Origin: a phage
Sequence record: PQ400055.1
DNA: 64,000 nucleotides
Direction: 5' to 3' (one strand)
A program made the position numbers and the translations under genes. Positions within the stretch are counted from its first letter, which is position 1. The number at the start of each line of letters is the position of its first letter. Below the pieces are notes generated by a model. It made no database searches, was not told where the DNA came from, and worked only from the letters and a program-made list of their open reading frames with translations. Below are positions 10,600 through 59,518 of this stretch, in pieces.

Positions 10600-10604
10600 C
10601 TTAA

Positions 10605-19116: not shown

Positions 19117-21231
19117 TTAAAATTTAACATTCTTAACCAGTTTCATAAAGTCTTGTGCGCGTTTGTCATTATGCAGAATACGATACCAGTTATCGACAAT
19201 ATCATACAGTAACGGGCTATTCTCTTTAAACTTCGCACAAACTGCTTTAATTCGTTCGTTTGCTACCGTGAATTTTTCATCACAAATCTTTTTAGTTTCT
19301 TCGTCCATAATCCAACGAGTACGAAGGAGTAACTTGGAAACCTCTTTATTATAATGACGACCGTACAGTCTGTCAATAAATTCTGGAACACAGCGTTCTA
19401 GTTCATCGTCATGAAACAACATAGTGATCACACCCAGATATTCGCCATACCCCAGATGATTGGTCTTAACCTTCTTAGCCAGACCAGCCAGCTTACCGCG
19501 AACAAATTCTAGCGCACATTCCAATTGTTCGTCAACGAGATATTTTTGTGTCTCGTTTCGAGTAATAATATACTTTGTTACCCCGAAGTAGTCAAGCGCC
19601 GTGTGTAATGTATTTTCACTATGGATCGATTTACGACTACGGCTTTCGAATGCATCACCTACGCGGAACATGTGCAAGCCTGATAACTCGCGAATCTCTG
19701 CCGCTTTCATGTGATGGCTGGTTTTATGCCAACTGTCACCAATCTTTTCCATGATATACACGTTAGGCAGCTTAGGAGTCGCTTCACGTTGTGTACGTGT
19801 ACGCTCGGTCTTCTCCGGTTTAACTGCTTTAGCACGCAGATCATCGGCCTCAGAAACTTTAATCACGGTCATTTCAGAATCATCATAATACTGTTTGATG
19901 TACTCGAAAGTTTCCATATGTTTTTCGTTGCGCTGACGGAACACCAGTACCTTTTTATTGATGCCGTATTCCTGGACCATACCGTTAAGAGTCAGTGCGC
20001 GTAGTTTCGGTTTATCGGTATCATCAATAAGACACATAATATCTTCTTTATGCATCCATACAAAATGCGTAATGTTGTATTGACTGCTAACGAAAGCAGG
20101 GCGCAATTTACTGATTGTGTGACGAGTACGATACAGAGTATACACCTGACCTTCTACGTCATTAGGCGAATCTTTACCCGCATTCACAAACTTATTATAG
20201 ATTGCTACCGGATCATCCCACTGCCCGATCTTACCCATCTTGCTAATAATATTGCGTTGAGTCGATGAATACTCGCTCATAAATTGCGCAAGTTTACGCT
20301 CTGTTTTAATGTTGGCGATCTTCTCTTTGACCTTTTCCAACATCATTTCATTGATTTCTGCAATGCGTTTTTCGATGTTCGCTTTAGTCTCAATTGACAA
20401 GTGAACTTCTTCACGCGATGGCATCAGGTCCAGATCACCCAACTCAAAATTAATGTAAATGGTCTGGTGCTGGCGGTTTACAGCTTCTAACCATGTTCCG
20501 CGAACATATTCATACGGGATCGGATACTGGATCTTACCCATGATTGCATATACTACATAGGAATCGTTATCACGCCCATTACAAACATAATAATTATCAA
20601 AGCTAGGGAAATAATTAATTTCGATTGCATTGATATTAGGTTTGTGTTCCCCAAAATGACGCAGTACAAATTGCGCTTCTCGATGCCATGTCTGAATATC
20701 TTTTTCTTTCACCGGAATAGTGATTTTCAGACCATTGTCTTCATAGGTCGGTTCGTCGAAAATCTGCACCATTTTCGGCATAGAGTTTTGCACAAATGCC
20801 GTAAAGCCATAAGCGCGACCATTGTAATAGTTTACGATTGTAAAGGTGTCAGTGTAGCTATAAGCAGATTTCGCACCTAAACCAAAAGACCCGATATAGT
20901 CATTAGTCTGGTCTTTTGTTGATTCAAAGTAAACCGTAAACAGTTGTTCTAATTCTTTCTTAGACGGAATACCAGTACCATAATCACGCACAGAGAAATA
21001 CGGTTCGATTGCAGTCGGTAAATGAATATCAAACGGACGATCTAAGGTTCCGGCTTCTTTGTGAGTGTCGGTAGCATTGCACGAATACTCACGGACGCAA
21101 GCACGCTCACAATATTGATAAGTGTTCTTAGAAAGCACCATAAAAGCCTTGCTACTTGCTTTCAGTGAAAAATCAACCGCACCGCTCAGGTCACTGCCAA
21201 ATACTTCTTCATTATCAATATGCATTTTCAT
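19117..21231 (-). CDS. rIIA: rIIA protector from prophage-induced early lysis
   Basis: 704 aa (T4 725 aa); N-terminal block DYGTGIPSKKE...YIGSFGLGAKSAYSYTDTFTIVNYYNGRAYGF matches T4 rIIA DFGPGMS...[32 protein letters not shown]. Confidence 0.9.
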   Translation of the reverse strand: MKMHIDNEEVFGSDLSGAVDFSLKASSKAFMVLSKNTYQYCERACVREYSCNATDTHKEAGTLDRPFDIHLPTAIEPYFSVRDYGTGIPSKKELEQLFTVYFESTKDQTNDYIGSFGLGAKSAYSYTDTFTIVNYYNGRAYGFTAFVQNSMPKMVQIFDEPTYEDNGLKITIPVKEKDIQTWHREAQFVLRHFGEHKPNINAIEINYFPSFDNYYVCNGRDNDSYVVYAIMGKIQYPIPYEYVRGTWLEAVNRQHQTIYINFELGDLDLMPSREEVHLSIETKANIEKRIAEINEMMLEKVKEKIANIKTERKLAQFMSEYSSTQRNIISKMGKIGQWDDPVAIYNKFVNAGKDSPNDVEGQVYTLYRTRHTISKLRPAFVSSQYNITHFVWMHKEDIMCLIDDTDKPKLRALTLNGMVQEYGINKKVLVFRQRNEKHMETFEYIKQYYDDSEMTVIKVSEADDLRAKAVKPEKTERTRTQREATPKLPNVYIMEKIGDSWHKTSHHMKAAEIRELSGLHMFRVGDAFESRSRKSIHSENTLHTALDYFGVTKYIITRNETQKYLVDEQLECALEFVRGKLAGLAKKVKTNHLGYGEYLGVITMLFHDDELERCVPEFIDRLYGRHYNKEVSKLLLRTRWIMDEETKKICDEKFTVANERIKAVCAKFKENSPLLYDIVDNWYRILHNDKRAQDFMKLVKNVKF

Positions 21232-21245: not shown

Positions 21246-21503
21246 TTAATTAAAATCTTCTTTGTCCATCTCTGCGTAGATTACATCCCACGCCCATAAA
21301 TCAATAAACGCATTATATGTCACGGTGCAATCGTTGTCAATCACTTCTTTCGCATATTTCTTGATGTTTTCGTAGGAAACTTGCGGGTCAATTTTGTGTT
21401 TACGAAGGTGCGCATATTCATATCTCAGACATTTCATAAACAGGTCCATCGATTTCTTTTCTCGATGACACTTGGCGATCATAAAATCAAAACTTCGACT
21501 CAT
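21246..21503 (-). CDS. hypothetical protein (rIIA.1 position)
   Basis: 85 aa ORF immediately upstream of rIIA. Confidence 0.5.
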   Translation of the reverse strand: MSRSFDFMIAKCHREKKSMDLFMKCLRYEYAHLRKHKIDPQVSYENIKKYAKEVIDNDCTVTYNAFIDLWAWDVIYAEMDKEDFN

Positions 21504-22284: not shown

Positions 22285-22324
22285 AGGGAGACTCCCATTA
22301 TAGAGAATCTCCCTTGTATGTCAA
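22285..22324 (-). promoter_or_regulatory. sigma70-type early promoter cassette with palindrome, downstream of gp39
   Basis: Minus strand TTGACA-16-TATAAT; GGGAGA...TCTCCC inverted repeat. Confidence 0.55.
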
Positions 22325-28789: not shown

Positions 28790-29314
28790 TTAGTAGCCGC
28801 GTTCTTGACGGGCGAAGTTTTCAGCATTTTTCAGATAGTACAGAATAAAGAGTTCTTGAGCGTCAATACCCAGCGGGATCATCTTTGACAGAATGAAGTG
28901 GATCGCGTCCACAAATTCAAATTTCACTTCAAGCTGATCTTCCGGTGACAGTTCAGAGAATTTACGCGCTCGCGCTTCTCCGTGGTTCTTTTTCCACATT
29001 TTCCAGATTGCACTTGCATCTTTACCATTGGACATTCCACCCAGCGATGTGTAAAGCTCTCGTGTTTCGTCTGCGATAGCGTCATCCATCCGTTGCATCC
29101 AATCCAGCATTTCACCGCAAGTCTCTAGCTTAGTTGGATTTGGGACCCAATCAAATTTTTCGGATAATGCAACCTGCAAACCAGTTTGCATTTCGAGCAT
29201 CACCTGAAACGGATCTTTACCTTCTGCAATAGCGTGATGATATGCGGCGATAGCCGCGTTAATATCTTTTTCGTTAACCAGACCAGCACAAGAATTAAAT
29301 TCTGACATATTCAC
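28790..29314 (-). CDS. 56: dCTP pyrophosphatase (gp56, MazG-like)
   Basis: 174 aa (T4 171 aa); C-terminus ...YYLKNAENFARQERGY and EFVDAIHFIL as remembered for T4 gp56; position before gene 61. Confidence 0.75.
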   Translation of the reverse strand: MNMSEFNSCAGLVNEKDINAAIAAYHHAIAEGKDPFQVMLEMQTGLQVALSEKFDWVPNPTKLETCGEMLDWMQRMDDAIADETRELYTSLGGMSNGKDASAIWKMWKKNHGEARARKFSELSPEDQLEVKFEFVDAIHFILSKMIPLGIDAQELFILYYLKNAENFARQERGY

Positions 29315-31978: not shown

Positions 31979-33391
31979 TTAGAAAGTCATGTTATTTGCT
32001 AGCTCGTCGAGTTTTTCTCGTTTCTCGGCTTGCTGTGCGCTTTGTGGTTTAACTTGTGCATTCTCCTGATCTGCGATCTGGTTTGGGACTTCATACCAAC
32101 GCTGATTGCCTTTTTTCACACCAACGTTAAACCGTGAATAATAGTTCTTATCACCGTAACGAGACTTGATCTGCTTCATGAGTTGGACGCCCATTTTAGC
32201 CAGGTCTTCGGTTTCGATAACACCCAACATAAAGTCGGCAGTAGCCGGAAGACCTGCTGATTCAGCGGTATCACTCATGTTAAGGTCGGAAGCATCCCAA
32301 CCAGCACGGGTAGTTTGTGCCGCAGTCCAACCAACAACATCCCACTTAACAAAAAATCCGCGAAGTTCTTCCGCAATCGCTTTAACGAGAGTGTAGCTAT
32401 TCTCAGAGTATACACGCAAGCGAGACGATGCGCAAATCCCCAGATAGTCAACAATCACAACATCAGGTTTAAACTGTTTCTTGAGTCGCAATTCATTCAT
32501 TAACGCCTCAAAGTGATTGGAGTTCGCGCCACCAGTCGGATACTGCTTGATCATCAATTTTCCAACCGGACGATCTCCGATCTTCTTATTCTTAACACGC
32601 TTCATACGTGCGGAATATTCCGCAAAAGAAACATTACCATTATCCAATTCATCTAATGTAATGTCAAGCAAGTTTGCGTCGATACGTTTGGCTACGACAT
32701 GCTCTGCCATCTCCATTGAGATATACAATACATCATAACCACATTCCATATAATCCGCAGCAAGAGAACATAATCCAAGCGATTTACCAACATTTACACC
32801 AGCAAGCAACACATTTAGCGTTTTTCTTTCCGCACCTCCTTTCGTGATTTTATTCAACATCGGCAGCTTAAACGGGATCTTATTCGCCTTAGTCTGATAT
32901 AGCAAGAATCGTTTTTCAAAGTCATTAAACCAGTCATGACCTACATCAGAATCAAACGTAATGGATAGTGCTTCCTGCATGATCTCAGGAATAGCACCCT
33001 CACTCGGCAATTTCTTATTCTGTTTCTCTTTTGGTAGTTGTGCGTTCGCCTGAATCTCTAGCGCCCGTGACATTGCATTATACATGGCACGGTCACGAAT
33101 AAATTTTTCGGTTTCCTTCATTAACCAATCAAGGTCTTCCGGTGTATTCTCAAGCGAATCAAGAAGAGTTTTAGCCCCTTCATATGTTGTCTGATTGCCT
33201 CTCTCCTTGTCTAAAGCAATCTGTAATGCAGTTGGCGTAGGAATGTTGGAATATTCGTCTACGTGCTTTTTAATCAGCTTATAAATCAGTTTTTCTTCGT
33301 CTTCGGTGAAGTAGTCCGCTTTAAGGTGAGGCCATACATTCGTAAAGAATGCGCCATTGTAAATCAACTGTGAAAAGATAGTTTTAATCAT
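31979..33391 (-). CDS. 41: replicative DNA helicase (gp41, DnaB-like)
   Basis: 470 aa (T4 475 aa); Walker A GVNVGKS and DnaB-like C-terminal RecA fold; adjacent to gp61. Confidence 0.88.
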   Translation of the reverse strand: MIKTIFSQLIYNGAFFTNVWPHLKADYFTEDEEKLIYKLIKKHVDEYSNIPTPTALQIALDKERGNQTTYEGAKTLLDSLENTPEDLDWLMKETEKFIRDRAMYNAMSRALEIQANAQLPKEKQNKKLPSEGAIPEIMQEALSITFDSDVGHDWFNDFEKRFLLYQTKANKIPFKLPMLNKITKGGAERKTLNVLLAGVNVGKSLGLCSLAADYMECGYDVLYISMEMAEHVVAKRIDANLLDITLDELDNGNVSFAEYSARMKRVKNKKIGDRPVGKLMIKQYPTGGANSNHFEALMNELRLKKQFKPDVVIVDYLGICASSRLRVYSENSYTLVKAIAEELRGFFVKWDVVGWTAAQTTRAGWDASDLNMSDTAESAGLPATADFMLGVIETEDLAKMGVQLMKQIKSRYGDKNYYSRFNVGVKKGNQRWYEVPNQIADQENAQVKPQSAQQAEKREKLDELANNMTF

Positions 33392-33705
33392 ACATAGCCC
33401 CCAACTACACGCATAACAAAGGTCTTGAGTTTATACCAGAAAGTTTCTTTTTTCAACTTTTCTTCTGCTTCTTTGATCTGCGCGGTTAACGCCTTAATGA
33501 CGTGTGGATATACCACATCACGATCTGACGGCGTGGAGTAGTCGACCACAATACCTTTAGTGTCTGTATCGTATTCAACATTATGAATATAGACAATATG
33601 ATGTTCTCCCTCTTCATCAACAATTATCAGTTCCTGAATAACTGTCTTCATTGCTTCTTGAATCAAGCCGTGTGCTTCTTCTAAACTTGTTGGTTTCTTA
33701 TCCAT
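33388..33705 (-). CDS. 40: hypothetical protein at gene 40 position (head vertex assembly chaperone)
   Basis: 105 aa with hydrophobic C-terminus; positional inference. Confidence 0.5.
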   Translation of the reverse strand: MDKKPTSLEEAHGLIQEAMKTVIQELIIVDEEGEHHIVYIHNVEYDTDTKGIVVDYSTPSDRDVVYPHVIKALTAQIKEAEEKLKKETFWYKLKTFVMRVVGGYV

Positions 33706-33725
33706 AATATAATCCTCTCTAGATA

Positions 33726-33750
33726 TGAAAAAGGGGCACGTAGCCCCTTT
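33726..33750 (-). terminator. rho-independent terminator after uvsX
   Basis: Minus-strand aaaggggc-tacgt-gccccttt followed by tttc. Confidence 0.65.
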
Positions 33751-33760
33751 ACTACCATTG

Positions 33761-34831
33761 TTATGCTAACATATCTTCGATTTCTTTGTCAACTGCTTCG
33801 TCGCTGATCACTTGCCCCAGCTTATAATGATCGTTGATTGCTTCGTTAAACTTATCGTTTGTCAGAAGTGGTTTCCAGAACTCAATGCTATTGGTTTCTT
33901 TAGCACGGAACTTGCGTTCTTCGGTTTCCATCTCTCCGGTCTCGGTATTTAGGATTGAACGAGAATACCAGCCGTTTGACGGTTTCACTACCCAGCCTAA
34001 ATCTACAGCCAATTCCAGCAACCCGGAATAAGGATCGATACCACCGCTAAATGTTACGCTAATCGGGAACTTAGATTTTTCTTTAACGGTTCGTGATTTT
34101 TCCGCATTCAGGATAAAATCATAACCAGTAATTTCGGTTCCTTCTTTCTGCTGACGACGACCAATAATGAAAACTTCATTGGCTGAATACATCGCGCCCG
34201 TACCGCCGGACATAACGGTCTTACTAAACATTTCTTGCGTTTCGTAAGTGTGGTTAATAGCGATGCACGGGATATCATTCATAGTCAGATACGGCGTAAC
34301 CATACGGAACAAGCCTTTAAGTGCTTTAGCTCGCGTCATATCCTGCGCTGATTTCTCATTAATCGCGTCTTCAACTTCTTTTTTGCTTGCTAAGTTACCG
34401 ATTGAGTCAATAAAGATGATCACTTTATCTTCACGGGTAATTTGCTCAAGCTGGTTCATGATTTCAAATTTCAGTTCTTCGATGTTCTTGATTGGAACAT
34501 GCACCACGCGATCAGGATCTACACCCATAGATTCAAGATAAGCGGACGTAATACCAAACTCAGAATCAAAGAACAAGCACGCCGCATCAGGATTCTGTTT
34601 CATGTATGCACTAACGCAAGTTAATCCCATGTTTGATTTAAAGTGCTTAGACGGACCAGCAAAGAAAATCAGACCAGATTGAAAGCCTTTTTTAAGATCA
34701 CCTGAAAACGCAATATTCAGCATCGGGATCTTAGTGCGAGTATTTGTTTTTTCGTTAAAGAAGCTGGATTTAGACAGTACCGCAGTAGTTTTCAGGGTAG
34801 AGTTCTTTTTCAGTTTTTCCAGTACAGACAT
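33761..34831 (-). CDS. uvsX: UvsX recombinase (RecA-like)
   Basis: 356 aa; RecA-fold Walker A GPSKHFKS and overall RecA-like organisation; position between 41/40 and 43. Confidence 0.85.
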   Translation of the reverse strand: MSVLEKLKKNSTLKTTAVLSKSSFFNEKTNTRTKIPMLNIAFSGDLKKGFQSGLIFFAGPSKHFKSNMGLTCVSAYMKQNPDAACLFFDSEFGITSAYLESMGVDPDRVVHVPIKNIEELKFEIMNQLEQITREDKVIIFIDSIGNLASKKEVEDAINEKSAQDMTRAKALKGLFRMVTPYLTMNDIPCIAINHTYETQEMFSKTVMSGGTGAMYSANEVFIIGRRQQKEGTEITGYDFILNAEKSRTVKEKSKFPISVTFSGGIDPYSGLLELAVDLGWVVKPSNGWYSRSILNTETGEMETEERKFRAKETNSIEFWKPLLTNDKFNEAINDHYKLGQVISDEAVDKEIEDMLA

Positions 34832-34842
34832 TATTAATACCT

Positions 34843-35031
34843 CTATTCAGTTAATCCGTAATACTTTAATTGCTTCATTGTTATTCGATCTTTGTAGTGC
34901 TCTTGAATTAACTTTTTCATCGCATCAACATCGATCGTCACAAATACTTCGTTGCTGTGATTTCCGTGAACTTTCTTGAAATGCTCTATGCCTTCCTCAC
35001 GTTCACGTTTAATCTTTTCAATGTCTCTCAT
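34843..35031 (-). CDS. hypothetical small protein
   Basis: Only ORF between uvsX and gene 43; ATG at 35031 chosen over the GTG at 35070. Confidence 0.4.
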   Translation of the reverse strand: MRDIEKIKREREEGIEHFKKVHGNHSNEVFVTIDVDAMKKLIQEHYKDRITMKQLKYYGLTE

Positions 35032-35092
35032 CGTATATTTCTCACGTTGGCGGGTATCGTCACCCAACACCCGCCATTATACACACTTTATC

Positions 35093-37771
35093 TTAAATGT
35101 CAAACAGGTCAGTCAGAGAAGCAACTTTCTCATATTGCAGCTTTGCAGCCGTGGTAATGTTCTCCAGTGGTTTGACGAAAGTCTTATTAAACAACAAAGG
35201 CCAGTCTAACCACTTTAACACCTCTGATTCAATTTCTGGAGGAATACGAGTACCGGACAACCAACCAAAACAGATTTCTCCAAACGGATTTCGATCTTTC
35301 AGCGGTACAATCATAACCTTCTCGCCCTCACGAATTGGATCTAGTCCGAATTTTCGAGCATTACGATTATAACACAATACACTCTTAACCGCATACGGAC
35401 AACCCTTAATCGGATACCCGTTTGAATCGCTGTATTTCTGTAGGTTGTTTGCAGATGATACCGCAGCAACCTCAAGATAATCAAGTTTTCTAAATTCTTG
35501 CTCAAAAATACCGTAGTATTCCTGCAATGACTCTTCACCTTCCTGCAACATACGGCGAATACATTCTTTCAGTGATTTCTGACATGCTTTAGGGGTGGAG
35601 CTACGTTGCGTTTCCAAGCCCATGATTTTTAGCTTAGGTTCAGCAAAGCGCGTTCCTTCCATATCCCAAACATTAAGAGCATAACGCTTTTTGCCAGTCC
35701 AGAATCCACCGATACCCGCAGATTTCAACGGAGGACCAGCAATTGCCTCACGGTCCATAAACATCAAGTGCTCATAGTTGTTCATGTACTCGCATAACTC
35801 GCGATATCCCTTGTCGATAATAGGTTCCATTCGATGTTTACCGAAATTATCAAGGAAGTCAACAAGTTTTTCGGTATCGTCGAAACGGTCTTCCCCGCCA
35901 ACCTTATCAACAACATTGTTAACCAGCACATAAACGGAGTCAGTATCACAATAACGAACATATGCAAAATCGGTTGTTCCGCAAAGCTCGTTTAAGTATT
36001 CGTTAATCTTACGCTCAATCCACTGAATTGCAAGCTGACCAAACAAGGTGATCGCACTAGCGTTACGGAGATCATAAAAACGGAATTTAGGATTCCCCAA
36101 CGCACCATAAAGGGAGTTGATCAAAACTTTTCGAGAAAGCTGGTTTGTATTGCACAAGATCGACTCGTCTTTACATTCTTCCAGCAATTTCTCTAAGGCA
36201 TCTTTACTTAATTCAGAAAGCATCGATTTAAACGCTTCATCAAAGTCGTGACGTACTTCAACGCTATAGCTAATGGTTCCCCCATAAACATGATTTTCAT
36301 CGTGTAGAATCGCTTTACAGAGTTCAGCATTGCGATCACATGCCAACATCATGTTTTTGTACTGCTTACGCTGATCGAATACCTTTTTAATCTCAATCGG
36401 TACGATACCGTGAATATCTTTTCTATACATCCATCCGTTAGGAGAGCAAGAATACTCATCACTCGGACGTGGTGCAGTTTTATTGATATACTCGTGCATC
36501 GGTGCAGCATCAAAAGATCCGGCGATTGTTTCCGGCGAAATGTTAACCTGTCGAATAATAGATGGGTACAGACTTGTTAAGTCAAAGCTCATCATCCAAC
36601 GGTAAGCATTCGGCACAGGTTCTTTTACGAATGCGCCTGGATACGTCTGCTTAGGCTGTATCTTATTTTCCGGTACTACTTTACCCTCAGCTTTCAGAGA
36701 TCCGAAGATAATAGCATCCCATACTTTCATCGGGTTATAAACATGGTTAAATTTAATCTTTGCATAGAAACATAGACTATACACAAGATCGATAAATCCA
36801 CGCTTTTTATCAATCGCCAGCACACGATCAACGTCGCCGATGTTATAATCGATGTAAAGTTGATGGTTGTCATCACGCAATTTCTTTAACGGACCATCAT
36901 AATCAACCTTACCGATTCCTGTCTCATATTCAGCAACATAATCTAACGCATATGTTGGTTGAGTCGTAAAGCTAAATTTCTTGTACAGGTCAATATAATC
37001 AAGGCTTTCGATCCCCATGATCGTAAATGCTTCACGCTCGTTGCCAAAATCATCCTGTGAGATTCGGGATTTAATCTTACCGCACGGGCTTAGACGGTTA
37101 GCGGTTCTACTTCCGAACTTATTACTGATACGTTTAATGATATATGGAATATCGAATGTTTCTGTGTTCCAGCCAGTGAAACCAACGGGTCGGTTTTCCT
37201 CAAAGAATCGGATGTATTCTAACAGCAATTCATCTTCTGTGTCATAGACGTTATAAACAACGCGCTCTACAATATCAGGTCGAAGAATAGACTTGCTTGC
37301 TTCCCAGATTTCACCGTTTTTTCCCTTCAAATCAAATACAAAGAAACGATCATGTACTGAATCATAATGCGTAATTGCATCGATAGGATATTTCGCTTCT
37401 TCTGGTTTAGGAAATTCTGGGGCAGTGACCTCGATATCAACCCATGCTACACGGATTTTATTTCGGTCATATCGAATCTCTCCTTTATACGTATCAGACA
37501 GATAGGAGATGATAAAATCATCCATCCCTAGCGCCTCTTGCCCCATTTCTCCCATCTTTTTACGCCATTTGTTGGCCTCGTTCATAGAGGGGAATTTTTT
37601 AGCAATGCAAGGCTTGCCATAGATATCTTTATAATTCGTAACCATACCAGGCGCGGCATGATGAAATAAAGTTGGCGTATATTCAACGTAACGCTCTTGT
37701 TCTTGTCCAGCATCATCAATATAACGCTCGTAGATCTTATCACCTACTCGCTCACATGACAGAAAATACAT
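35093..37771 (-). CDS. 43: DNA polymerase (gp43, family B)
   Basis: N-terminus ...VGDKIYERYIDDAGQEQERYVEYTPTLFHH...KDIYGKPCIAKKFPSMNEANKW matches T4 gp43; ATG at 37771 has RBS ggag and a promoter cassette upstream (track start 37801 lies inside it). Confidence 0.92.
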   Translation of the reverse strand: MYFLSCERVGDKIYERYIDDAGQEQERYVEYTPTLFHHAAPGMVTNYKDIYGKPCIAKKFPSMNEANKWRKKMGEMGQEALGMDDFIISYLSDTYKGEIRYDRNKIRVAWVDIEVTAPEFPKPEEAKYPIDAITHYDSVHDRFFVFDLKGKNGEIWEASKSILRPDIVERVVYNVYDTEDELLLEYIRFFEENRPVGFTGWNTETFDIPYIIKRISNKFGSRTANRLSPCGKIKSRISQDDFGNEREAFTIMGIESLDYIDLYKKFSFTTQPTYALDYVAEYETGIGKVDYDGPLKKLRDDNHQLYIDYNIGDVDRVLAIDKKRGFIDLVYSLCFYAKIKFNHVYNPMKVWDAIIFGSLKAEGKVVPENKIQPKQTYPGAFVKEPVPNAYRWMMSFDLTSLYPSIIRQVNISPETIAGSFDAAPMHEYINKTAPRPSDEYSCSPNGWMYRKDIHGIVPIEIKKVFDQRKQYKNMMLACDRNAELCKAILHDENHVYGGTISYSVEVRHDFDEAFKSMLSELSKDALEKLLEECKDESILCNTNQLSRKVLINSLYGALGNPKFRFYDLRNASAITLFGQLAIQWIERKINEYLNELCGTTDFAYVRYCDTDSVYVLVNNVVDKVGGEDRFDDTEKLVDFLDNFGKHRMEPIIDKGYRELCEYMNNYEHLMFMDREAIAGPPLKSAGIGGFWTGKKRYALNVWDMEGTRFAEPKLKIMGLETQRSSTPKACQKSLKECIRRMLQEGEESLQEYYGIFEQEFRKLDYLEVAAVSSANNLQKYSDSNGYPIKGCPYAVKSVLCYNRNARKFGLDPIREGEKVMIVPLKDRNPFGEICFGWLSGTRIPPEIESEVLKWLDWPLLFNKTFVKPLENITTAAKLQYEKVASLTDLFDI

Positions 37772-37803
37772 AATATAAACTCCTTCACTTACGAAAGACA
37801 CTC

Positions 37804-37832
37804 ATTATAGGGGAATCGACTTAGTTTGTCAA
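37804..37832 (-). promoter_or_regulatory. sigma70-consensus promoter upstream of gene 43
   Basis: Minus strand TTGACA-17-TATAAT between regA stop and the gp43 start. Confidence 0.6.
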
Positions 37833-37853
37833 TACCCCTATCCCATCAGTATC

Positions 37854-38216
37854 TTATCGCCCGATCTGATATTTCTCGATCAGCGTCCACTCTTCTTTCT
37901 GTTTGAAAGACAATACACGGAAATTATTAACTTCGGTAGTTTCAAAATCACTATCAATCAGGGTACACAGATTCCACTGCGCCAGAAGTTTTGCAATGTT
38001 ATTACGGCGTAATTCATCTTCCCACGTCATTTTAACACTACGACCATCTAATTTCAACAACTCCTTGAAATGAACGATGTAATAGCGCCCTTTCTTCTGG
38101 AGAATATGACAAGACTGATACAGTGTCTTGTCTCGATTGTTGGCAATGCCGCAGCGGGTTAAAGTTTCCTTAATTTTAAGGAAGTTTTCAGGACTAATCA
38201 AATTAATTTCAATCAT
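37854..38216 (-). CDS. regA: RegA translational repressor
   Basis: 120 aa; MIEINLISPENFLKIKETLTRCGIANNRDKTLYQSCHILQKKGRYYIVHFKE nearly identical to T4 RegA. Confidence 0.95.
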   Translation of the reverse strand: MIEINLISPENFLKIKETLTRCGIANNRDKTLYQSCHILQKKGRYYIVHFKELLKLDGRSVKMTWEDELRRNNIAKLLAQWNLCTLIDSDFETTEVNNFRVLSFKQKEEWTLIEKYQIGR

Positions 38217-44621: not shown

Positions 44622-44651
44622 AGTATAACGGGGATTTCTCCCCGCGTCAAC
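44622..44651 (-). promoter_or_regulatory. sigma70-type early promoter cassette with palindromic spacer
   Basis: Minus strand TTGACG-18-TATACT; CGGGGA-gaaa-TCCCCG palindrome in the spacer. Confidence 0.5.
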
Positions 44652-45676
44652 TAACTTTTTGCGCTATTTACTTCTGCTAAAAGTTCATCAGAGATACGCT
44701 TAACTGCCGCAAGTTCTTCCGGTTCTAGGTTTTGTTCTTCCAGATATTCATAGACCATCTGAATAGTGCTTTTAACTTCAATAACACCTGTTTCCTGTGA
44801 TGCGCTACTCTCCAGTTTATGGACCACTTTTAGCTTGTGTACAACGGCCTCTAACGCGCTTTCTAACTTAGTTAACCCATTATCAGCAACCGTTGCAATA
44901 AGACGCACACTAAGCCCCTTAAAGCGTTCTACATCGATTTTATCATCTGACGGGTAAGTGATACGCACATGATAAGTTTTGTCATTCTGGATAAACTCTT
45001 TTTTGTGTGTATCGGTATCGAATACCCAAAACCCACGCGGATCGTTTTCGTCACCCGCCGTTAGTGTGTATGGTGTACCGATATACGTTACATTACCGCC
45101 ATCGCTGATAGTATGAAAATGACCGGAAAACACTTCACGGTATTTCTTGAGGAAGTCCGCGCTATAACCTTCGGATTTTAGCCCTTTATAGAAATAGTAA
45201 CCGGACAATTCCCAATGGCCTACACAATATTCGCTGAATGAGTTTTGAATAAACTCTAAAATCTCTGATTTATTGTCATCACAAAACCACGGGAACAGAT
45301 CAAATGATACACCATCAAAGGTAACTGTTTCCGGTTTATCGATAACCTTAATGCAATCATACTGGCTTAACACTTCACGCGGTGCGTTAGGCTGGATCTT
45401 GTTTCGTTTAAACATATCATGGTTCCCGACCGTGATATAACAAGTAATTCCAGCCTCTTCCAGTAATGGGATGACCTTAGTACGGTTAAATTTCATGGTT
45501 TCATGGGTAATTGCTTTTCGGCAATCAAACCAATCCCCTGTTTGAATCCATGTCTTAATATTATGCTCTTTGGAGTATTCAACCGCCTTCTTGATGGTAT
45601 CAAGAATATACTCATGCACCCACGGATCATCGCCACCGATACCAGTATGCAGATCACCTAAAAGCAAAATTTTCAT
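44651..45676 (-). CDS. 47: recombination endonuclease subunit gp47 (Mre11/SbcD-like)
   Basis: 341 aa (T4 339 aa); calcineurin-like phosphoesterase motifs LGDLH, GNHD, GHFH. Confidence 0.88.
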   Translation of the reverse strand: MKILLLGDLHTGIGGDDPWVHEYILDTIKKAVEYSKEHNIKTWIQTGDWFDCRKAITHETMKFNRTKVIPLLEEAGITCYITVGNHDMFKRNKIQPNAPREVLSQYDCIKVIDKPETVTFDGVSFDLFPWFCDDNKSEILEFIQNSFSEYCVGHWELSGYYFYKGLKSEGYSADFLKKYREVFSGHFHTISDGGNVTYIGTPYTLTAGDENDPRGFWVFDTDTHKKEFIQNDKTYHVRITYPSDDKIDVERFKGLSVRLIATVADNGLTKLESALEAVVHKLKVVHKLESSASQETGVIEVKSTIQMVYEYLEEQNLEPEELAAVKRISDELLAEVNSAKS

Positions 45677-45721
45677 AGTCTCTTCCTCTCTTCGTTTTCG
45701 ATGCTCTCACTATATCACAGA

Positions 45722-45746
45722 AAAATAAAAAGGGAAACCCCTTTCA
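45722..45746 (-). terminator. weak terminator-like hairpin upstream of gene 47
   Basis: Minus-strand aaaggg-gttt-cccttt followed by ttatttttc. Confidence 0.4.
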
Positions 45747-45766
45747 GAGTCTCCCTTATAAAGCCA

Positions 45767-46054
45767 TTACAGCATACTTAATACCGTTTGCCGTGTACTA
45801 ATCCACATAGCAGAAAGCAGTTCTGGCGTGTGTGGCTGTTTGTAGATATCACGTAACTTTCCGATAGCGTAGATATACGCATCACGGTTATCATCGATGA
45901 TAGCTTGTTCAGCCCACCGCTTAAGGCGTGCAATCTCTCGCGAGTTCTTACGCAAGATCTTTTCCGCTTTCTTAGCGGCTTTAGCCTCTAGTTCTGCTTG
46001 TACTTTGTCTACTTCATTCACTGCAATCTGGTCATGCTGTTCATTGCAAGTCAT
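45767..46054 (-). CDS. hypothetical protein
   Basis: 95 aa, predicted helical. Confidence 0.45.
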   Translation of the reverse strand: MTCNEQHDQIAVNEVDKVQAELEAKAAKKAEKILRKNSREIARLKRWAEQAIIDDNRDAYIYAIGKLRDIYKQPHTPELLSAMWISTRQTVLSML

Positions 46055-46055
46055 A

Positions 46056-46289
46056 TTATTTTACCTCTGGGATATAATCAATTATTAAAGAAAATTCATC
46101 TTCTGATACATTATAGCTATGTGAGATTGTACCCGTAAAGACCTCAAGATCCGGTGATTTGATATTGCACGGATCGATAATCACCGGAACGCCGCAATCT
46201 CTCAAAAATAATTTGGCGAAATACGGCACAAGGTCAGTTTCAAACTCTGCTTCTTCCAGCAAACGGGAAATGTTAATTTTCAATCTCAT
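46056..46289 (-). CDS. hypothetical protein
   Basis: 77 aa ORF. Confidence 0.4.
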
Positions 46290-46806
46290 AAAATTGGTCC
46301 AAGCTAGGCAATTCCTCGGTCAATACATCTTCAACCTTTGGCGCTTTCGGTTTATTGACCGATTCCTCGTAGTTGTTGATTTTATCGTAAATGTCCTGTA
46401 TGAATGCCTCATCAGCAATCTGGCACATATCAGCGTCGCGTTCGTCATATACATGATGCACAAAATATTTGTATTTTGCGGCTGTCGCTGTTCTCTCTTT
46501 TTTAATGCGCTGTACAAAAGCATTAAAGCACGCTTGCGTGATGTAAGCATGAGGATTTTTATACTTTGTCTCGTCAAAATTAATCAAACCCTTGACCGCC
46601 GCTTCGATTCCGTCGTCGATCATTTCTTCGCGCCACGTTTGACTATAACCAGAAAAGTTAAAACGACGTGATAGATTTTTAGAGATTTGCATAATTGCTA
46701 GGCCGATTTGATCGCTCATTGGAACTTGCCGACCTTCTGCTGCAATTTGTTGTTTCCAACGGCAAATTTCTTCGTAAAGCTCTTTATTGTTTACATAATC
46801 AGACAC
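46273..46806 (-). CDS. 55: late-transcription sigma factor gp55
   Basis: YVNNKEL...[58 protein letters not shown] nearly identical to T4 gp55; GTG start with RBS gaggg. Confidence 0.95.
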
Positions 46807-46846: not shown

Positions 46847-48316
46847 CTATTCCCCATTACCATTATACTTTCTTTGCTTAGTTATCCACACTCTAACCAT
46901 CTCTACAGATTCGCCGTCAGACGGATCAAGAGTTTTTCCTTTTTTCTTCATGCGGTACTTAAATCCGTTAAATCTTGCATTCTCTTGCTCGTTAAAGTCG
47001 AACATCTTTTTAAATGATTTTCGCCCTTTACGTTCACCACATTCTAGCGGAATCATTCGATCTGTTATTACATTGGCATTAGGCAGAAACGTTTTTAGAT
47101 AATCCACCAACGCCCAATCAGGAACATATAGATTAACATTCTCCTTGCTCTCGTTGTCTCTCAGGTTACAACGCAAACATAATTGAAATGCTGGTTCCAG
47201 ATAATCAGACACATGACGCGCTTTCAAAAACTCGTTTGTCGGGAGATCACAACTATTAGCAAGACCTTTTAAAATATCAATCTCCCATCGTTGAGGGTTA
47301 AAGCTGAACATCACAGCAACATTTTTATGATGAATGTAAGAGTTAAGACCATAAGACCCGTAAGGTATCCGCTCACCAATACCATTTGTACACGCTTCAC
47401 GGTCCCGATTCACGGTATAAATGAAGTCATCGCCACATTCATTTTTAACCATATCAACAAGACGTTCAAAGGTATTGTTTGTTTCTGACTGGTGACGCGA
47501 CCATCGTTCAGAGTCCGTCATAAGGATGATATTAACTCTATCTGTATTTTTATACTCTTTGAAATATAGTCTGGATTCTAGCGCACTCGGAACAAAATCG
47601 CAATTTGCATAGTATCGTAGATACTTCCCACTATATGTATCAAAGAGATTTGCACATGCTATCGTAACCTTTTTAAAGTCTCCCCACGTACCGTGTTTGT
47701 TATCGTTCAAGAAAACAATTTTCGACCCATTCTTCCGGTGTCCTTCGTTATGTTTTACCATAACGTTGATTTTCTTCTCTAATAACGCCTCATAAAGCCC
47801 TCTAAGAGAAGAATCGATCATATCAGTACCATCCTTCGCACTTTCTATCTTTTCTTTGATAGCGGCCTTCTCAGAGTCTTTTAGAACTAAGTTCTGTAGG
47901 CATTCCGATTCGTCGGCGATTGGTTCGCAATGCTTCGTGATAAGTTCAAGATTAGACTTAAACGGATACTCATTAAATTCAACCAGTTGAGGAACTTCAT
48001 CAATGTAAAGAGCATAATCACCAAACATTTTTGAACGTTCCATATTAGATAACGCTGTATGTGTAATGAATATCACATCAGCACCATCTTTAACTGATTG
48101 CATTATCGACGCTTGCACTGTCTTAAGGCTTCTTAGTCTTGTGCTATCAATCAAGACAGCACGACCGCCCATTCTTTTAAACTTATTGTAAGATTGTTCA
48201 CTTAAAACACGAGATGGCGAAGCAATAACCGCTTTTTCTTTTGTCTCTAGGACGTGGGAAAGTATAGCATCAGTTTTCCCCGCCGCTGGCAATGCGATTA
48301 ATGTTTCAATCTTCAT
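46847..48316 (-). CDS. P-loop NTPase, possible helicase-like N-domain, function unknown
   Basis: 489 aa; Walker A-like LPAAGKTDA and DEAD-like YIDEVP; C-terminal ~300 aa without recognisable motifs. Confidence 0.55.
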   Translation of the reverse strand: MKIETLIALPAAGKTDAILSHVLETKEKAVIASPSRVLSEQSYNKFKRMGGRAVLIDSTRLRSLKTVQASIMQSVKDGADVIFITHTALSNMERSKMFGDYALYIDEVPQLVEFNEYPFKSNLELITKHCEPIADESECLQNLVLKDSEKAAIKEKIESAKDGTDMIDSSLRGLYEALLEKKINVMVKHNEGHRKNGSKIVFLNDNKHGTWGDFKKVTIACANLFDTYSGKYLRYYANCDFVPSALESRLYFKEYKNTDRVNIILMTDSERWSRHQSETNNTFERLVDMVKNECGDDFIYTVNRDREACTNGIGERIPYGSYGLNSYIHHKNVAVMFSFNPQRWEIDILKGLANSCDLPTNEFLKARHVSDYLEPAFQLCLRCNLRDNESKENVNLYVPDWALVDYLKTFLPNANVITDRMIPLECGERKGRKSFKKMFDFNEQENARFNGFKYRMKKKGKTLDPSDGESVEMVRVWITKQRKYNGNGE

Positions 48317-48783: not shown

Positions 48784-49042
48784 AAATCGCCCTCAGTTCT
48801 TTATAGCCTCCAATGTGCTCGTTGTCAATGAATATCTGGGGGTATACAAACCGGAGGCTCTTTGAGTTTAGCCTCCCCGCCAGTTCTTCAATCATATCAC
48901 GGTCGGGAATAATGTCAACCCCGACCTGCTTGAATACTGGTTTAAGTGTATACGGAATACCCAGATCATCCAGTAGCTTCATTGCACTAATACAACCATA
49001 ACAATGATAAGCCTCTTTCGGTATACCGTATATCTCGATCAT
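48773..49042 (-). CDS. glutaredoxin/thioredoxin-fold protein (NrdH-like)
   Basis: 89 aa; CxxC active site YHCYGCIS near the N-terminus. Confidence 0.65.
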   Translation of the reverse strand: MIEIYGIPKEAYHCYGCISAMKLLDDLGIPYTLKPVFKQVGVDIIPDRDMIEELAGRLNSKSLRFVYPQIFIDNEHIGGYKELRAIYDY

Positions 49043-49560
49043 TTCTCAGCCTTTAATCTTTCTAGTTCTTCTTCCAGTTCCTTGATCCGTTGGTCACGTT
49101 CAAAGTCACGCTGTAGCTTAGTGGCAAATACTCGCTTAAACTGATTGTAATCATCGATTTTAAACACTTCTTCTTCGCCATAGCGACGTACAGAAACTTC
49201 GTAGTTGTTGAAAAATTGTTCCAACATTGCATCAGTAGTCAGTTCTGACGACACCACTTTAAAATAACGTTCTTCTGATTGCAAAAACCAGTTGTGCGCG
49301 TATTCCCGTACATCATCAACATCTCGACAGGTGTATGTTTTTCCATCAATTTCAATCGCAGAAACATATTCGATATCTGACGCAATTTTTTCAAAAGCGA
49401 TAACTTTAAATGTACGGTCACCGATAAAGTCTGCTATTGCATCATTTGCAACACTGGTTGCAAATGCTTTCCGCGCTCGCTCGTTTTTCCACTGATAGGT
49501 CATACCAACAACAAACATATTACCATCAACAAACATATTACCAACCTCGCTCTTTACCAA
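49039..49560 (-). CDS. paralogous-family protein, member 1 (one repeat unit plus coiled-coil tail)
   Basis: 173 aa; motifs GMTYQWKN...FKV...IEIDGKTYT...WF..ERYFKVV; C-terminal RIKELEEELERLKAEK. Confidence 0.55.
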   Translation of the reverse strand: MVKSEVGNMFVDGNMFVVGMTYQWKNERARKAFATSVANDAIADFIGDRTFKVIAFEKIASDIEYVSAIEIDGKTYTCRDVDDVREYAHNWFLQSEERYFKVVSSELTTDAMLEQFFNNYEVSVRRYGEEEVFKIDDYNQFKRVFATKLQRDFERDQRIKELEEELERLKAEK

Positions 49561-51403: not shown

Positions 51404-51913
51404 TCAAATAATTTTCACTGGAATACTATTAACAATCTTGTATTGTACTTGATTGTCAGACCCCCGCCACGGCTTCTTCGTTGGCATATCTTTAATATAA
51501 CGCCCATCGATGAACATGTCAACTGATTCTACAATTTTTCTTTGCTCATCATTCAATTGGTCAAGGGTATAACCGGACCATAGCCAAATATCTTTATTTG
51601 GCATCCATGATTTTACTTCATCGATGATCCGCTGTACACCCTTTAAATTGCGTTTATACAGTGGATCGCCACCTAAGAATGTTAGCCCCTGAATAAAATC
51701 AGGTCTAAGCAGGTCCAGAATCAATCCCATTGTATCATCGGTGAATGGTTCCCCGTTCTTAGGATTGAGTAGGCTAGCATTAAAGCAACCATCACATGCG
51801 TGTGAACATCCGGTAACGTAAAGGGAGACTCTCACTCCCTCACCGTTAACCATATCACAATCTTTAATATCGGCATAGCGTAGTTTGCCGTATGTATCAG
51901 AACTCATATTCAA
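51404..51913 (-). CDS. nrdG: anaerobic ribonucleotide reductase activating protein (radical SAM)
   Basis: 169 aa; CSHACDGC radical-SAM cysteine motif; adjacent to nrdD region. Confidence 0.85.
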   Translation of the reverse strand: MNMSSDTYGKLRYADIKDCDMVNGEGVRVSLYVTGCSHACDGCFNASLLNPKNGEPFTDDTMGLILDLLRPDFIQGLTFLGGDPLYKRNLKGVQRIIDEVKSWMPNKDIWLWSGYTLDQLNDEQRKIVESVDMFIDGRYIKDMPTKKPWRGSDNQVQYKIVNSIPVKII

Positions 51914-52047
51914 TTACCCCGAACTCGTTTACAATCTGCGCTTTATAGTAACCACCGCGAGATGCTAATAGATAAGCTGGGCTTAGGTATTCGTATTCAC
52001 GGATTTCTACTTGTGCGTTTTCAGTTTCCCAAATCAGTAAAGTCCAC
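51897..52047 (-). CDS. hypothetical small protein (start moved to internal ATG)
   Basis: Track start 52124 lies inside the promoter cassette; internal ATG at 52047 has RBS ggag. Confidence 0.35.
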
Positions 52048-52091
52048 ATATTTGATTCTCCTGTAAAGTTGTATCTCGTCTTGATGAATAT

Positions 52092-52120: not shown

Positions 52121-52124
52121 GCAT

Positions 52125-58415: not shown

Positions 58416-58709
58416 TTAACCATTAATCTTGTTTTTGACTACAAAGGATCGGAACTCATCAAAACCACCGATATAATCACCATCATAGAAAATCTGCGGC
58501 ATGGTGGCAATAACTTCTACCCCTGCGCGATCCTGAATATCGGCAATGATAGAATCAATCTTTACCGGGCGACCGTTTTCGTCCACACCATCATTAACCG
58601 GAATGTAGATGTAAGGGATCTTACGCGCTTCACAAAGGCGCTTTGCATTCTGGCAATACTTACAGTTGTAACCTTCAAAACCAAAAATTTCTACCATGTT
58701 ATACCTCAA
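58416..58709 (-). CDS. nrdC: thioredoxin/glutaredoxin (NrdC-like)
   Basis: 97 aa; CKYCQNAKRL...MPQIFYDGDYIGGFDEF matches T4 NrdC CVYCDNAKRL...MPQVFAPDGSHIGGFDQL. Confidence 0.85.
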   Translation of the reverse strand: MRYNMVEIFGFEGYNCKYCQNAKRLCEARKIPYIYIPVNDGVDENGRPVKIDSIIADIQDRAGVEVIATMPQIFYDGDYIGGFDEFRSFVVKNKING

Positions 58710-59518
58710 TCTACGTTAGTTACATAAACTTCTTGCGTATCAGAAGACTTGCCACCTGAACGATCTAGGCAATAGGTCTTATTCAACAAGACGCAGTTTA
58801 AATCATTCCGCTTGATAAAGTCAAGAAGATGATCATTTGCCTTTCCCTTATGATGCGTGACATTACTTATACCAAACTGAAAACCACGCGCCATAATAGA
58901 TTCTACCCACTGATAGAATTTAATCTCTTCCTCGTCACTCCAGAACTTATTGTATTCCGCAGAAGTGATAAGGTACGGCGGGTCCAAATAAACGAAATCA
59001 CCTGGCAAGATCTCGATCTCGTCATAACGACCAGAAGTAAAACTGATTCGACCGTCTTTGTTTTCTTCCTTAAAATTCAGGACGCGCTCTACCGCGTTTT
59101 CGTTAAAAGTCCGTCGGCCAAAATTAGCATTAAATTCTCCCTTCCTGTTATGGCGGTTAATGTTGCTAAAACTGTGCTGAATCAACACAAACAGAGATAG
59201 AGGGTCTGGATTCTCGTTATACTTCTTACGGAATGTCATGTAAGCGTCTTTATCTTCGCGAGACAAACCATTTTCGGCAATAATACGCTTGATCGTAGAA
59301 ACCGGATCAGGACACTCATCAATGGCCTTGTAAGCGTCAATTAAGCGATGATCATAGTCATTAGCCAGTACATCACCTTCAACATACAGAGACACGCTCA
59401 AGCCACCACAAAAGGCATCAACAAAGCGGTTATAGTGCTTAGGGAAATATTTACTAACACCGGGCAATAACTTTTCCTTATTGCCCGTATAGGGAATTAA
59501 ACCTAATGCTTTCTTCAT
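58706..59518 (-). CDS. dam: DNA adenine methyltransferase (Dam)
   Basis: 270 aa; YTGNKEKLLP..YNRFVD.FCGGLSVSL...LANDYD and GDFVYLDPPYLITSAEYNKFWSDEEE match T4 Dam. Confidence 0.9.
   Translation of the reverse strand: MKKALGLIPYTGNKEKLLPGVSKYFPKHYNRFVDAFCGGLSVSLYVEGDVLANDYDHRLIDAYKAIDECPDPVSTIKRIIAENGLSREDKDAYMTFRKKYNENPDPLSLFVLIQHSFSNINRHNRKGEFNANFGRRTFNENAVERVLNFKEENKDGRISFTSGRYDEIEILPGDFVYLDPPYLITSAEYNKFWSDEEEIKFYQWVESIMARGFQFGISNVTHHKGKANDHLLDFIKRNDLNCVLLNKTYCLDRSGGKSSDTQEVYVTNVD

Follow-up and report, generated by a model that had tools for sequence, protein, structure and literature searches.

Krischvirus, the genus of the RB49-type phages, belongs to the family Straboviridae and lies outside the subfamily Tevenvirinae. 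The absence from its members of the genes for hydroxymethylcytosine (hmC) DNA has been described on several occasions. Gene 42, alc, and denB are missing from RB49-type phages (Petrov et al. 2010, PMC2993671, Table 4), alpha-gt being limited to the T-evens and beta-gt to T4 and CC31 (PMC2993671). According to a 2021 survey, the RB43 and RB49 groups keep only the DenA and dCTPase-dUTPase homologues and have no known base-modification enzymes; they do encode cytosine methyltransferases (PMC8056088). RB49 DNA is cut by HpaII and NheI, and the phage has been described as having neither hydroxymethylase nor beta-gt (Yaung et al. 2014, PMC4041780). Krischvirus genomes have also been reported to be devoid of 5hmdCMP synthase and glucosyltransferase genes, and HPLC/MS of one member, TB34, revealed canonical nucleosides only (PMC13390438). 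The lack of hmC genes in RB49-type phages is hence already published, and finding it again restates an established property of the genus. What is added here is the anatomy of the two junctions in which the T-even genes would be expected, the avoidance of restriction sites in a newly analyzed stretch, a synteny argument for insertion of the T-even genes, and a critical reading of the one dissenting report, that of modified cytosine in phage SAP.

The DNA analyzed (64,000 nt; hereafter the window) is, as judged from nucleotide identity and gene order, a segment of a Krischvirus (RB49-type, "pseudo-T-even") genome. A 4.3-kb query spanning the uvsX-43 junction (positions 33700 to 38000) gave 65 matches among phage records. 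Fifty-nine of these cover at least 80% of the query at 95 to 99.7% identity; all are RB49-type coliphages, including RB49, JSE, Phi1, Delraymugoa, kvi, TB34, and SAP. Nucleotide identity over this segment is 98 to 99.7% to RB49, JSE, Phi1, Delraymugoa, and others (98.3% over the 4.3 kb for RB49, NC_005066), and positions 1 to 25000 are 96 to 98% identical to the same genus. Among complete genomes, that of Escherichia phage Delraymugoa (164,032 bp) is the nearest; it is colinear with the whole window and mostly ~98% identical to it, the main aligned blocks ranging from 91 to 98% and one short tail-fiber segment standing at 77%. G+C content is ~40% throughout the window. The gene order of RB49 was recovered: RB49p025 separates uvsX from 43, and the pair a-gt.4/a-gt.5 precedes gene 55. 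More generally, the Krischvirus relatives (RB49, Phi1, JSE, Delraymugoa, and TB34, at 96 to 99.7% identity) are arranged as in the window and have in common with it a 62-aa ORF and a promoter/stem-loop cassette between 43 and uvsX, the a-gt.4/a-gt.5 pair adjoining gene 55, gp56 beside gene 61, and Dam beside gene 49. JSE, kvi, PTE-Eco09, G5211, and G2494 carry a ~1.1-kb insertion in gene 43, whereas gene 43 of the window is uninterrupted. No record identical to the window was present in the phage collection (best match, 99.7% locally and 96 to 98% over the tail-fiber end), making this phage another member of a well-sampled genus. The main value of the finding is the classification as an RB49-type phage.

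The minus strand of the window carries, in order, genes 41, 40, uvsX, a small ORF, 43, regA, 62, 44, and 45, then 46, and then 47, two small ORFs, and 55 (Table 1). The flanking core genes (41-40-uvsX, 43-regA-62-44-45, 46-47, and 55) are orthologous to and colinear with those of T4. The start codon of uvsX ends at position 34831 and the stop codon of gene 43 starts at 35093, leaving an interval of 261 bp compared to ~3.6 kb in T4. An earlier note on this DNA had given the interval as 34832 to 35092, with one ORF of ~62 to 75 aa; the coordinates proved exact and a single ORF was seen, on the minus strand, of 62 aa from an ATG (34843 to 35031) or 75 aa from a GTG (to 35070). The T4 content that it had given for this interval (beta-gt, 42, and imm) is also right, as T4 has segA, b-gt, 42, imm, and imm.1 there.

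Table 1. Coordinates of the features discussed in the text (positions in the 64,000-nt window)
Feature	Position	Strand	Evidence or remark
Gene 56 homologue (dCTPase/dUTPase-type NTP pyrophosphohydrolase), beside primase gene 61 as in T4	28790..29308	(-)	49% identity over all 171 aa of T4 gp56, E=7e-51
Gene 41	31979-33391	(-)	
Gene 40	33388-33705	(-)	
uvsX (RecA-like recombinase), lower border of uvsX-43 interval	33761..34831	(-)	63% identity to T4 UvsX, E=9e-151; syntenic with RB49 uvsX annotation
62-aa early ORFan (RB49p025 orthologue; phrog_12120), sole gene between uvsX and 43	34843..35031	(-)	phrog_12120 E=4e-42
GC-rich stem-loop of putative PeSL cassette, 12-bp stem	35048..35076	(-)	RNA fold -22.7 kcal/mol, z=-5.9
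Perfect sigma-70 consensus early promoter, TTGACA-16-TATAAT	35076..35103	(-)	12/12 match; overlaps end of gene 43; RB49 annotation has an early promoter here
Gene 43 DNA polymerase, upper border of uvsX-43 interval	35093..37801 (ORF)	(-)	Relatives annotate ATG at 37771
Second perfect sigma-70 promoter, upstream of gene 43	37804..37832	(-)	
Gene 47 (SbcD-like nuclease subunit), lower border of 47-55 interval	44651..45676	(-)	Syntenic with RB49 and Delraymugoa annotation
Terminator-like hairpin and T-run between a-gt.4 and 47	45730..45757	(-)	
a-gt.4 orthologue (DUF2654)	45767..46054	(-)	44% identity to T4 a-gt.4, E=1e-12; Pfam PF10849 E=1e-22
a-gt.5 orthologue (DUF5491), overlaps 3' end of gene 55	46056..46289	(-)	32% identity to T4 a-gt.5, E=6e-8; phrog_1169 E=3e-29
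Gene 55 late sigma factor, upper border of 47-55 interval	46273..46806	(-)	Syntenic with RB49 and Delraymugoa annotation
Dam (GATC N6-adenine) methyltransferase homologue	58706..59518	(-)	46% identity to T4 Dam, E=2e-64; PF02086 E=4e-30

None of the T4 genes is hidden in the window in a form that our searches would detect. With T4 gp42, b-gt, a-gt, imm, and imm.1 as tblastn queries, nothing better than E=0.2 was obtained, in agreement with the claim that 42, beta-gt, and imm are missing between uvsX and 43 and alpha-gt between 47 and 55. This absence is not a sensitivity artifact because the positive controls scored in the same run (uvsX, 1e-150; gp56, 7e-51; Dam, 2e-64). Remnants or pseudogenes of 42, beta-gt, imm, or alpha-gt were not found in either interval (tblastn, up to E=10). 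Compared to the T4/Tevenvirinae system, the window is without gp42, alpha-gt, beta-gt, imm, imm.1, segA, mobB, 47.1, a-gt.2, a-gt.3, alc, denB, and arn; gp56, Dam, a-gt.4, a-gt.5, denA, cd, Td, Frd, and gp1 homologues are common to T4 and the window or its relatives.

The 64 kb of the window were read directly, and the other ~100 kb of this phage were judged from its relatives. The whole-genome homologue search that had been proposed was run on complete Delraymugoa and returned no gp42, alpha-gt, or beta-gt. In tblastn with T4 proteins, a-gt, b-gt, imm, alc, denB, arn, and ndd were not found in this genome, and denA, cd, frd, 56, and dam were; for alc, denB, and arn there was no match with E<0.02 in either Delraymugoa or the window. 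Profile searches gave the same picture. T4 and Moonvirus CF1 proteins served to build HMMs for the TS superfamily, gp42 alone, b-gt, and Imm, phmmer was run with a-gt and beta-alpha-gt, and the targets were every six-frame ORF of at least 40 aa from Delraymugoa and the window, with all filters off. Only Td was recovered (E=3e-136), with nothing else below E=0.01, and for the glucosyltransferases (alpha-gt, beta-gt, and beta-alpha-gt/TAGT) nothing fell below E=0.5 in the window or Delraymugoa by tblastn, phmmer, or HMM. Pfam domains of glycosyltransferases or TET/JBP were absent from ~35 window and Delraymugoa proteins, including all the larger hypothetical ones. Of the components of a post-replicative route from 5mC through 5hmC to glycosylated cytosine (C5 methyltransferase, TET/JBP dioxygenase, and TAGT), these ~35 proteins thus included only a C5-methyltransferase-like one, encoded in Delraymugoa outside the region of the window.

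The sole weak gp42 match in Delraymugoa (tblastn E=0.007) is to a gene annotated "thymidylate synthase," the one ORF of the thymidylate synthase superfamily in that genome. Its 410-aa product was considered as a disguised hydroxymethylase and rejected. It is 38 to 51% identical to T4 Td, has the motifs CHPF, QRSVD..GLPFNVASY, and GGDTHIY, and carries at the specificity position an Asn where gp42 has Asp (RND), its extra length being a ~135-aa insertion.

The earlier note had further described two small ORFs "instead of" alpha-gt between 47 and 55 (45677 to 46272). Two ORFs are there and alpha-gt is not; they are, however, orthologous to T4 a-gt.4 and a-gt.5, which are neighbors of gene 55 also in T4, and therefore cannot be regarded as replacements. 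The a-gt.5 assignment rests on the T4 and PHROG matches in Table 1, the match to PF17595 (E=3e-4) being below the Pfam cutoff. The interval measures 596 bp in the window compared to ~3.15 kb in T4, where it contains 47.1, a-gt, mobB, and a-gt.2 to a-gt.5. RB49 has in addition an HNH-AP2 homing endonuclease gene (RB49p040) between 47 and a-gt.4, which is absent from the window.

Homologues of gp56 and Dam are retained as had been claimed, at 49% and 46% identity to the T4 proteins, the former also matching PF08761 (dUTPase_2) and phrog_173. The two genes differ in location: T4 has dam between 56 and 61, whereas in the window Dam adjoins gene 49. The gene 56 product is the only dUTPase-type enzyme of T4 relatives. 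Here it would have been kept in that capacity and, judging from T4 biochemistry, would together with dCMP deaminase and Td feed dUMP and dTMP synthesis. The word "nevertheless" with which the earlier note had introduced these genes suggested a paradox for gp56, but there is none: the presence of gp56 is not specific to hmC phages, gene 56 occurring with or without gene 42 and being absent, among T4 relatives, from four giant phages only (Petrov et al. 2010, PMC2993671, Table 4). The gp1 dNMP kinase is likewise kept in relatives (PF21448).

The short uvsX-43 interval has a distinctive structure. The window has nine perfect sigma-70 promoter matches where 0.13 would be expected, and every one of them is on the minus strand. 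In the one at the uvsX-43 junction, the -10 box runs directly into a stem-loop whose stability was equaled by none of 200 shuffles. This stem-loop is not followed by a U-tract and is thus not a canonical intrinsic terminator. Promoter-early stem-loop (PeSL) cassettes have been described in RB49 and phi1, where they border gene 43 on both sides and typically precede ORFans (Arbiol et al. 2010, PMC2839356). As in the window, they consist of a sigma-70 consensus promoter fused to a G/C-rich stem-loop just upstream of a small ORFan. In its sequence features, the promoter and stem-loop at the uvsX-43 junction are a PeSL cassette of the published type.

The most fitting description of the ORF downstream is that of a horizontally mobile early ORFan. 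The encoded protein is at least 95% identical in 59 Krischvirus records, and homologues with 45 to 50% identity occur in unrelated ~48-kb phages of Salmonella, Klebsiella, and E. coli, e.g., Akira, where they lie within clusters of small genes. No Pfam match was found for it. The protein is highly charged and helical, with no membrane segment, which rules out an analogue of Imm; the AF2 model is of low confidence (pLDDT 66, pTM 0.32). As to its start, the -10 box reaches to 35076, so that transcription would be expected to begin at or after the GTG at 35070, which is itself part of the stem-loop. The 62-aa ATG form is therefore the real one; all relatives annotate this 189-nt CDS rather than the 75-aa form.

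Where all the cytosines of a phage are glucosyl-hmC, most type II enzymes have no effect on its DNA, and nothing is gained by purging their sites. We examined all 64 palindromic hexamers, taking as depleted those more than 4-fold below a Markov-expected count of at least 4. Twenty-one are depleted in the window, and 17 are absent altogether (observed versus expected: GAATTC, 0 versus 16; AAGCTT, 0 versus 16; GGATCC, 0 versus 13; TCCGGA, 0 versus 28). The whole Delraymugoa genome has 24 depleted palindromic hexamers (TCCGGA, 1 versus 66 expected) compared to only one in T4 (79 kb), while the proportion of depleted nonpalindromic hexamers is ~1% in the window, Delraymugoa, and T4 alike. The pentamers CCWGG and CCSGG are also 2.5- to 4-fold depleted in the window (observed/expected ratio [O/E], 0.39 and 0.25, respectively). 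No depletion is seen for GATC (O/E, 1.0), the site that Dam of the phage itself would protect. Rusinov et al. found that coliphages of the T4-like family without hydroxymethylase avoid 56% of E. coli restriction sites versus 2.4% for those with the enzyme (Rusinov et al. 2018, PMC6286503). The hexamer counts of the window and T4 reproduce this contrast. We located no report on palindrome avoidance in RB49 specifically beyond this general result. The avoidance marks DNA exposed to type II restriction and speaks for a long history of exposed cytosine DNA in the lineage, T4 differing in showing no such avoidance.

The gene content of Delraymugoa, the hexamer avoidance in the window, the RB49 digests, and the HPLC/MS analysis of TB34 all support the original suggestion that no glucosyl-hmC is made. 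We conclude that the phage is very probably a Krischvirus that replicates with ordinary dCTP and packages canonical-cytosine DNA, lacking both the T-even imm-42-beta-gt cassette and alpha-gt. No phage of this type has been found to carry that cassette, which sits between 43 and uvsX in Tevenvirinae, or alpha-gt, whose place is between 47 and a-gt.4. Here the uvsX-43 junction is occupied by the PeSL cassette, which would drive the 62-aa ORFan; alc, denB, and arn, whose functions are useful only with hmC DNA, are likewise missing. Protection without hypermodification may take two routes: the purging of type II restriction sites (palindromic hexamers and CCNGG) and site-specific methylation, for which Dam is available in the window and two further candidate methyltransferases, one C5-cytosine type and another N6 type, lie outside the window region in relatives. 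The window DNA is expected to be ordinary C-DNA, cuttable by restriction enzymes and clonable. A phage with C-DNA would be open to type I to III restriction, BREX, and CRISPR while offering no target to type IV enzymes (GmrSD, McrBC), and it would be able to perform generalized transduction, which matters for the safety of phage therapy (PMC12115623, PMC8056088).

Whether the T-even genes were never there or were lost can be approached by comparing the 43/uvsX junction across genera. Gene 43 abuts uvsX, with no ORF in the gap, in Pseudotevenvirus Miller (79 nt), Slopekvirus P-KP2 (74 nt), and the distantly related Menderavirus Moby (43 nt). Like the window, these genera (Pseudotevenvirus, RB43/Miller; Slopekvirus, KP15/P-KP2; Menderavirus, Moby) are without gene 42 and have no modification genes between 43 and uvsX; they differ in that their gaps are free of any ORF whereas the Krischvirus junction has the PeSL and the 62-aa ORFan, the latter also being found at this position in the divergent Krischvirus phiS. 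The Tevenvirinae junction, in contrast, is occupied in Moonvirus CF1 by two hypothetical genes, imm, 42, beta-alpha-gt, and beta-gt. On the simplest reading of this synteny, a compact 43/uvsX junction would be ancestral and the hmC cassette an insertion in the Tevenvirinae line, with Krischvirus separately gaining its PeSL and ORFan at the same junction. That the site of the T-even cassette is empty in several other genera supports such an insertion origin.

A Krischvirus ancestor that had imm-42-beta-gt and alpha-gt and lost them cleanly is the alternative, which we consider improbable. PeSL-mediated deletion is documented in the RB49 group (PMC2839356), and partners of the hmC pathway are kept (56, denA, cd, gene 1, a-gt.4, and a-gt.5). 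However, 56, denA, cd, and gene 1 occur widely among T4 relatives whether or not these have gene 42 (PMC2993671), 43 and uvsX are adjacent in the three other genera without gene 42, one of them outside Straboviridae, and neither interval contains pseudogene remnants. The site avoidance, which is genome-wide, also speaks against loss by implying a long evolution with unmodified DNA.

A second alternative is raised by a 2026 report on phages of the Durham Collection. Virion DNA of Krischvirus SAP was found by HPLC/MS to contain ~1/3 5-hmdC and ~2/3 alpha-gentiobiosyl-hmdC, and the phage was restricted by the type IV enzyme BrxU; its genome is without every known pathway gene, and the authors call the modification unexplained (PMC13390438). 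Taken at face value, Krischvirus would make hmC-derived hypermodified cytosines by a pathway that involves no gp42-, alpha-gt-, or beta-gt-like proteins. Sequence searches do miss enzymes that bear no recognizable resemblance to known ones, roughly half of the window ORFs are without an assigned function, and gp56 is kept in the window, as is the gp1 kinase in relatives. We nonetheless regard such a pathway as highly improbable. Seven T6-like Tequatrovirus phages of the Durham Collection have the same modification profile as SAP, whose genome shares 99.96% identity with that of unmodified TB34 (PMC13390438). Moreover, the listed differences between the two do not appear to be biological. Table S5 of the report (PMC13390438) includes ~45 single-base indels, which would frameshift gp43, gp45, UvsX, gp39 (topoisomerase), gp47, and NrdB; no viable phage could carry these, and they must have arisen in assembly. 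Each of the other 16 differences is a C>T or G>A change. SAP and TB34 thus appear to share a single genome, and the "modified Krischvirus" would be most simply explained by a stock that was mixed or mislabeled. That RB49 DNA is cut by HpaII and NheI (PMC4041780) and that strong restriction-site avoidance bespeaks long-exposed C-DNA point in the same direction. The evidence thus points to an artifact rather than to new chemistry, and there is very little likelihood that a Krischvirus like this one packages 5-hydroxymethylcytosine and gentiobiosyl-hmC, perhaps conditionally, with no detectable gp42 or glucosyltransferase homologue. Were it true, gene content would fail to predict DNA chemistry in T4 relatives.

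That this phage has the pathway genes beyond the 64-kb window, gained, e.g., from a co-infecting T-even into another hyperplastic region, is the least credible reading: only the window was read and T4-type genomes do shuffle accessory genes via PeSLs and homing endonucleases (PMC2839356), but complete Delraymugoa has none, surveys of RB49, phi1, JSE, TB34, SAP, and the whole RB49 group find none (PMC2993671, PMC8056088, PMC13390438), palindromic-site avoidance would not persist if the DNA were hypermodified, and alc and denB, of which the window bears no trace, would have had to be acquired as well.

The 16 C>T or G>A differences between SAP and TB34 show a pattern of their own. Twelve were mapped, and each of them fits the middle base of a CCSGG site: nine are CCSGG sites in Delraymugoa, two were checked in SAP, and one was deduced from the codon change. 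Two of the nine Delraymugoa positions also fall in the window (39615 in gene 44 and 59462 in dam), and both are CCSGG there; in the alignment of the dam site, SAP and the window read CCGGG and TB34 reads CCAGG. The pattern hints at a modified cytosine, through either base-calling errors at the modified site or deamination of 5mC. We give roughly even chances to a site-specific modified cytosine at CCSGG in these phages, made by a C5-methyltransferase-like enzyme of their own. The candidate enzyme is a 279-aa C5-methylase-like protein (PF00145, E=4e-19) encoded between nrdA and nrdB in relatives, including Delraymugoa, outside the region covered by the window.

Avoidance of palindromic hexamers across the window is extreme. 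Over positions 1-64000, 21 of the 64 palindromic hexamers were depleted more than 4-fold and 17 were absent, including GAATTC, AAGCTT, GGATCC, CTGCAG, and TCCGGA (zero occurrences each), against one depleted palindromic hexamer in a 79-kb T4 comparison and about 1% of non-palindromic hexamers. The pentamers CCWGG and CCSGG were also underrepresented in the window (observed/expected, 0.39 and 0.25, respectively), and a search for GATC avoidance in the window revealed none.

CCSGG recurs when SAP and TB34, two Krischvirus phages with published genomes, are compared. All 12 of the mapped "SNPs" (one of them by inference) fell at the central base of this motif, which is T/A in TB34 and C/G in SAP, the window, and other relatives. 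The remaining differences between the two genomes are 1-bp indels that frameshift essential genes. Conjointly, the CCSGG-centered "SNPs" and the frameshifting indels suggest assembly artefacts and, in virion DNA, cytosine modification at CCSGG.

Two further genes lie outside the window in the closest complete relative, Escherichia phage Delraymugoa. The product of one has 172 aa and includes a GmrSD_N (DUF262) domain (PF03235, E=6e-20); the other, two genes away, encodes a 238-aa methyltransferase (phrog_757). Encoded by a phage whose DNA is unmodified, the 172-aa product is a partial type IV restriction-like protein, and we speculate that it acts against hmC-containing competitor phages. The Krischvirus thymidylate synthase, also encoded outside the window, owes its length of 410 aa to an insertion of ~135 aa (approximately residues 118 to 253) between conserved TS blocks, for which no Pfam match was found.

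Gene 43 is uninterrupted in the window, whereas in JSE, kvi, PTE-Eco09, G5211, and G2494 the gene 43 match is in two pieces ~1.1 kb apart and each of these five phages has two "DNA polymerase" annotations. For JSE, Petrov et al. (2010, PMC2993671) describe gene 43 as containing a putative group I intron, the homing endonuclease of which is degenerate. Between gene 47 and a-gt.4, RB49 carries RB49p040, a 555-nt gene for an HNH-AP2 homing endonuclease; in the window and in Delraymugoa, nothing but a spacer of 90 nt separates the two genes, and it includes a terminator-like hairpin.

Homologues sharing 45 to 50% identity with the 62-aa ORFan, the only gene between uvsX and gene 43, occur in unrelated phages of ~48 kb that infect Salmonella, Klebsiella, and E. 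coli, e.g., Salmonella phage Akira, where they are located within runs of small hypothetical genes. This distribution indicates that a very small gene has spread horizontally.

Perfect matches to TTGACA-N15-18-TATAAT numbered nine in the window versus 0.13 expected by chance, all on the minus strand, i.e., in the direction of early transcription. They are probably PeSL elements, the promoter-early stem-loop cassettes of RB49/phi1, the stem-loop having been examined at the copy next to gene 43 (35076-35103) only.

Coordinates of the features described in the window (PQ400055.1) and in related phages
Feature	Sequence	Position	Strand	Gene or match
CCSGG difference	Window	39615		gene 44
CCSGG difference	Window	59462		dam
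CCSGG differences	SAP, OZ034687.1	125060, 127945, 140012
CCSGG difference	TB34, OX001802.1	~127843
GmrSD_N protein	Delraymugoa segment L003	L003:30079-30597
Methyltransferase	Delraymugoa segment L003	L003:30928-31644
Thymidylate synthase	Delraymugoa segment L004	L004:1759-2991 (Delraymugoa 51759-52991)
Gene 43	Window	35093-37801
47/a-gt.4 spacer	Window	45677-45766
62-aa ORFan	Window	34843-35031
ORFan homologue	Akira (L008)	L008:2447-2629
Perfect promoter	Window	19348-19376	minus
Perfect promoter	Window	21312-21340	minus
Perfect promoter	Window	22297-22324	minus
Perfect promoter	Window	35076-35103	minus
Perfect promoter	Window	37804-37832	minus
Perfect promoter	Window	53239-53266	minus
Perfect promoter	Window	55742-55769	minus
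Perfect promoter	Window	61111-61139	minus
Perfect promoter	Window	63860-63887	minus
489-aa protein	Window	46847-48316		phrog_2467
Paralogous ORF	Window	49039-49560		phrog_5347
Paralogous ORF, longer	Window	49538-50362		phrog_5347
GoF-annotated gene	Window	55766-56944
GoF-annotated gene	Window	57001-57585
Distal long-tail-fibre region	Window	7832-10993

Directly upstream of gene 55, the window encodes a conserved 489-aa protein with a weak N-terminal DEAD/DEAH helicase match (PF00270, E=3e-6). Two neighbouring paralogous ORFs share a phrog family, the longer of them also matching GoF-like (mRNA metabolism modulator) families, and further GoF-annotated genes are present. The distal long-tail-fibre region is the part of the window most divergent from Delraymugoa, with segments of 77 to 91% identity plus unaligned gaps compared to ~98% identity elsewhere, a pattern that is consistent with host-range variation.
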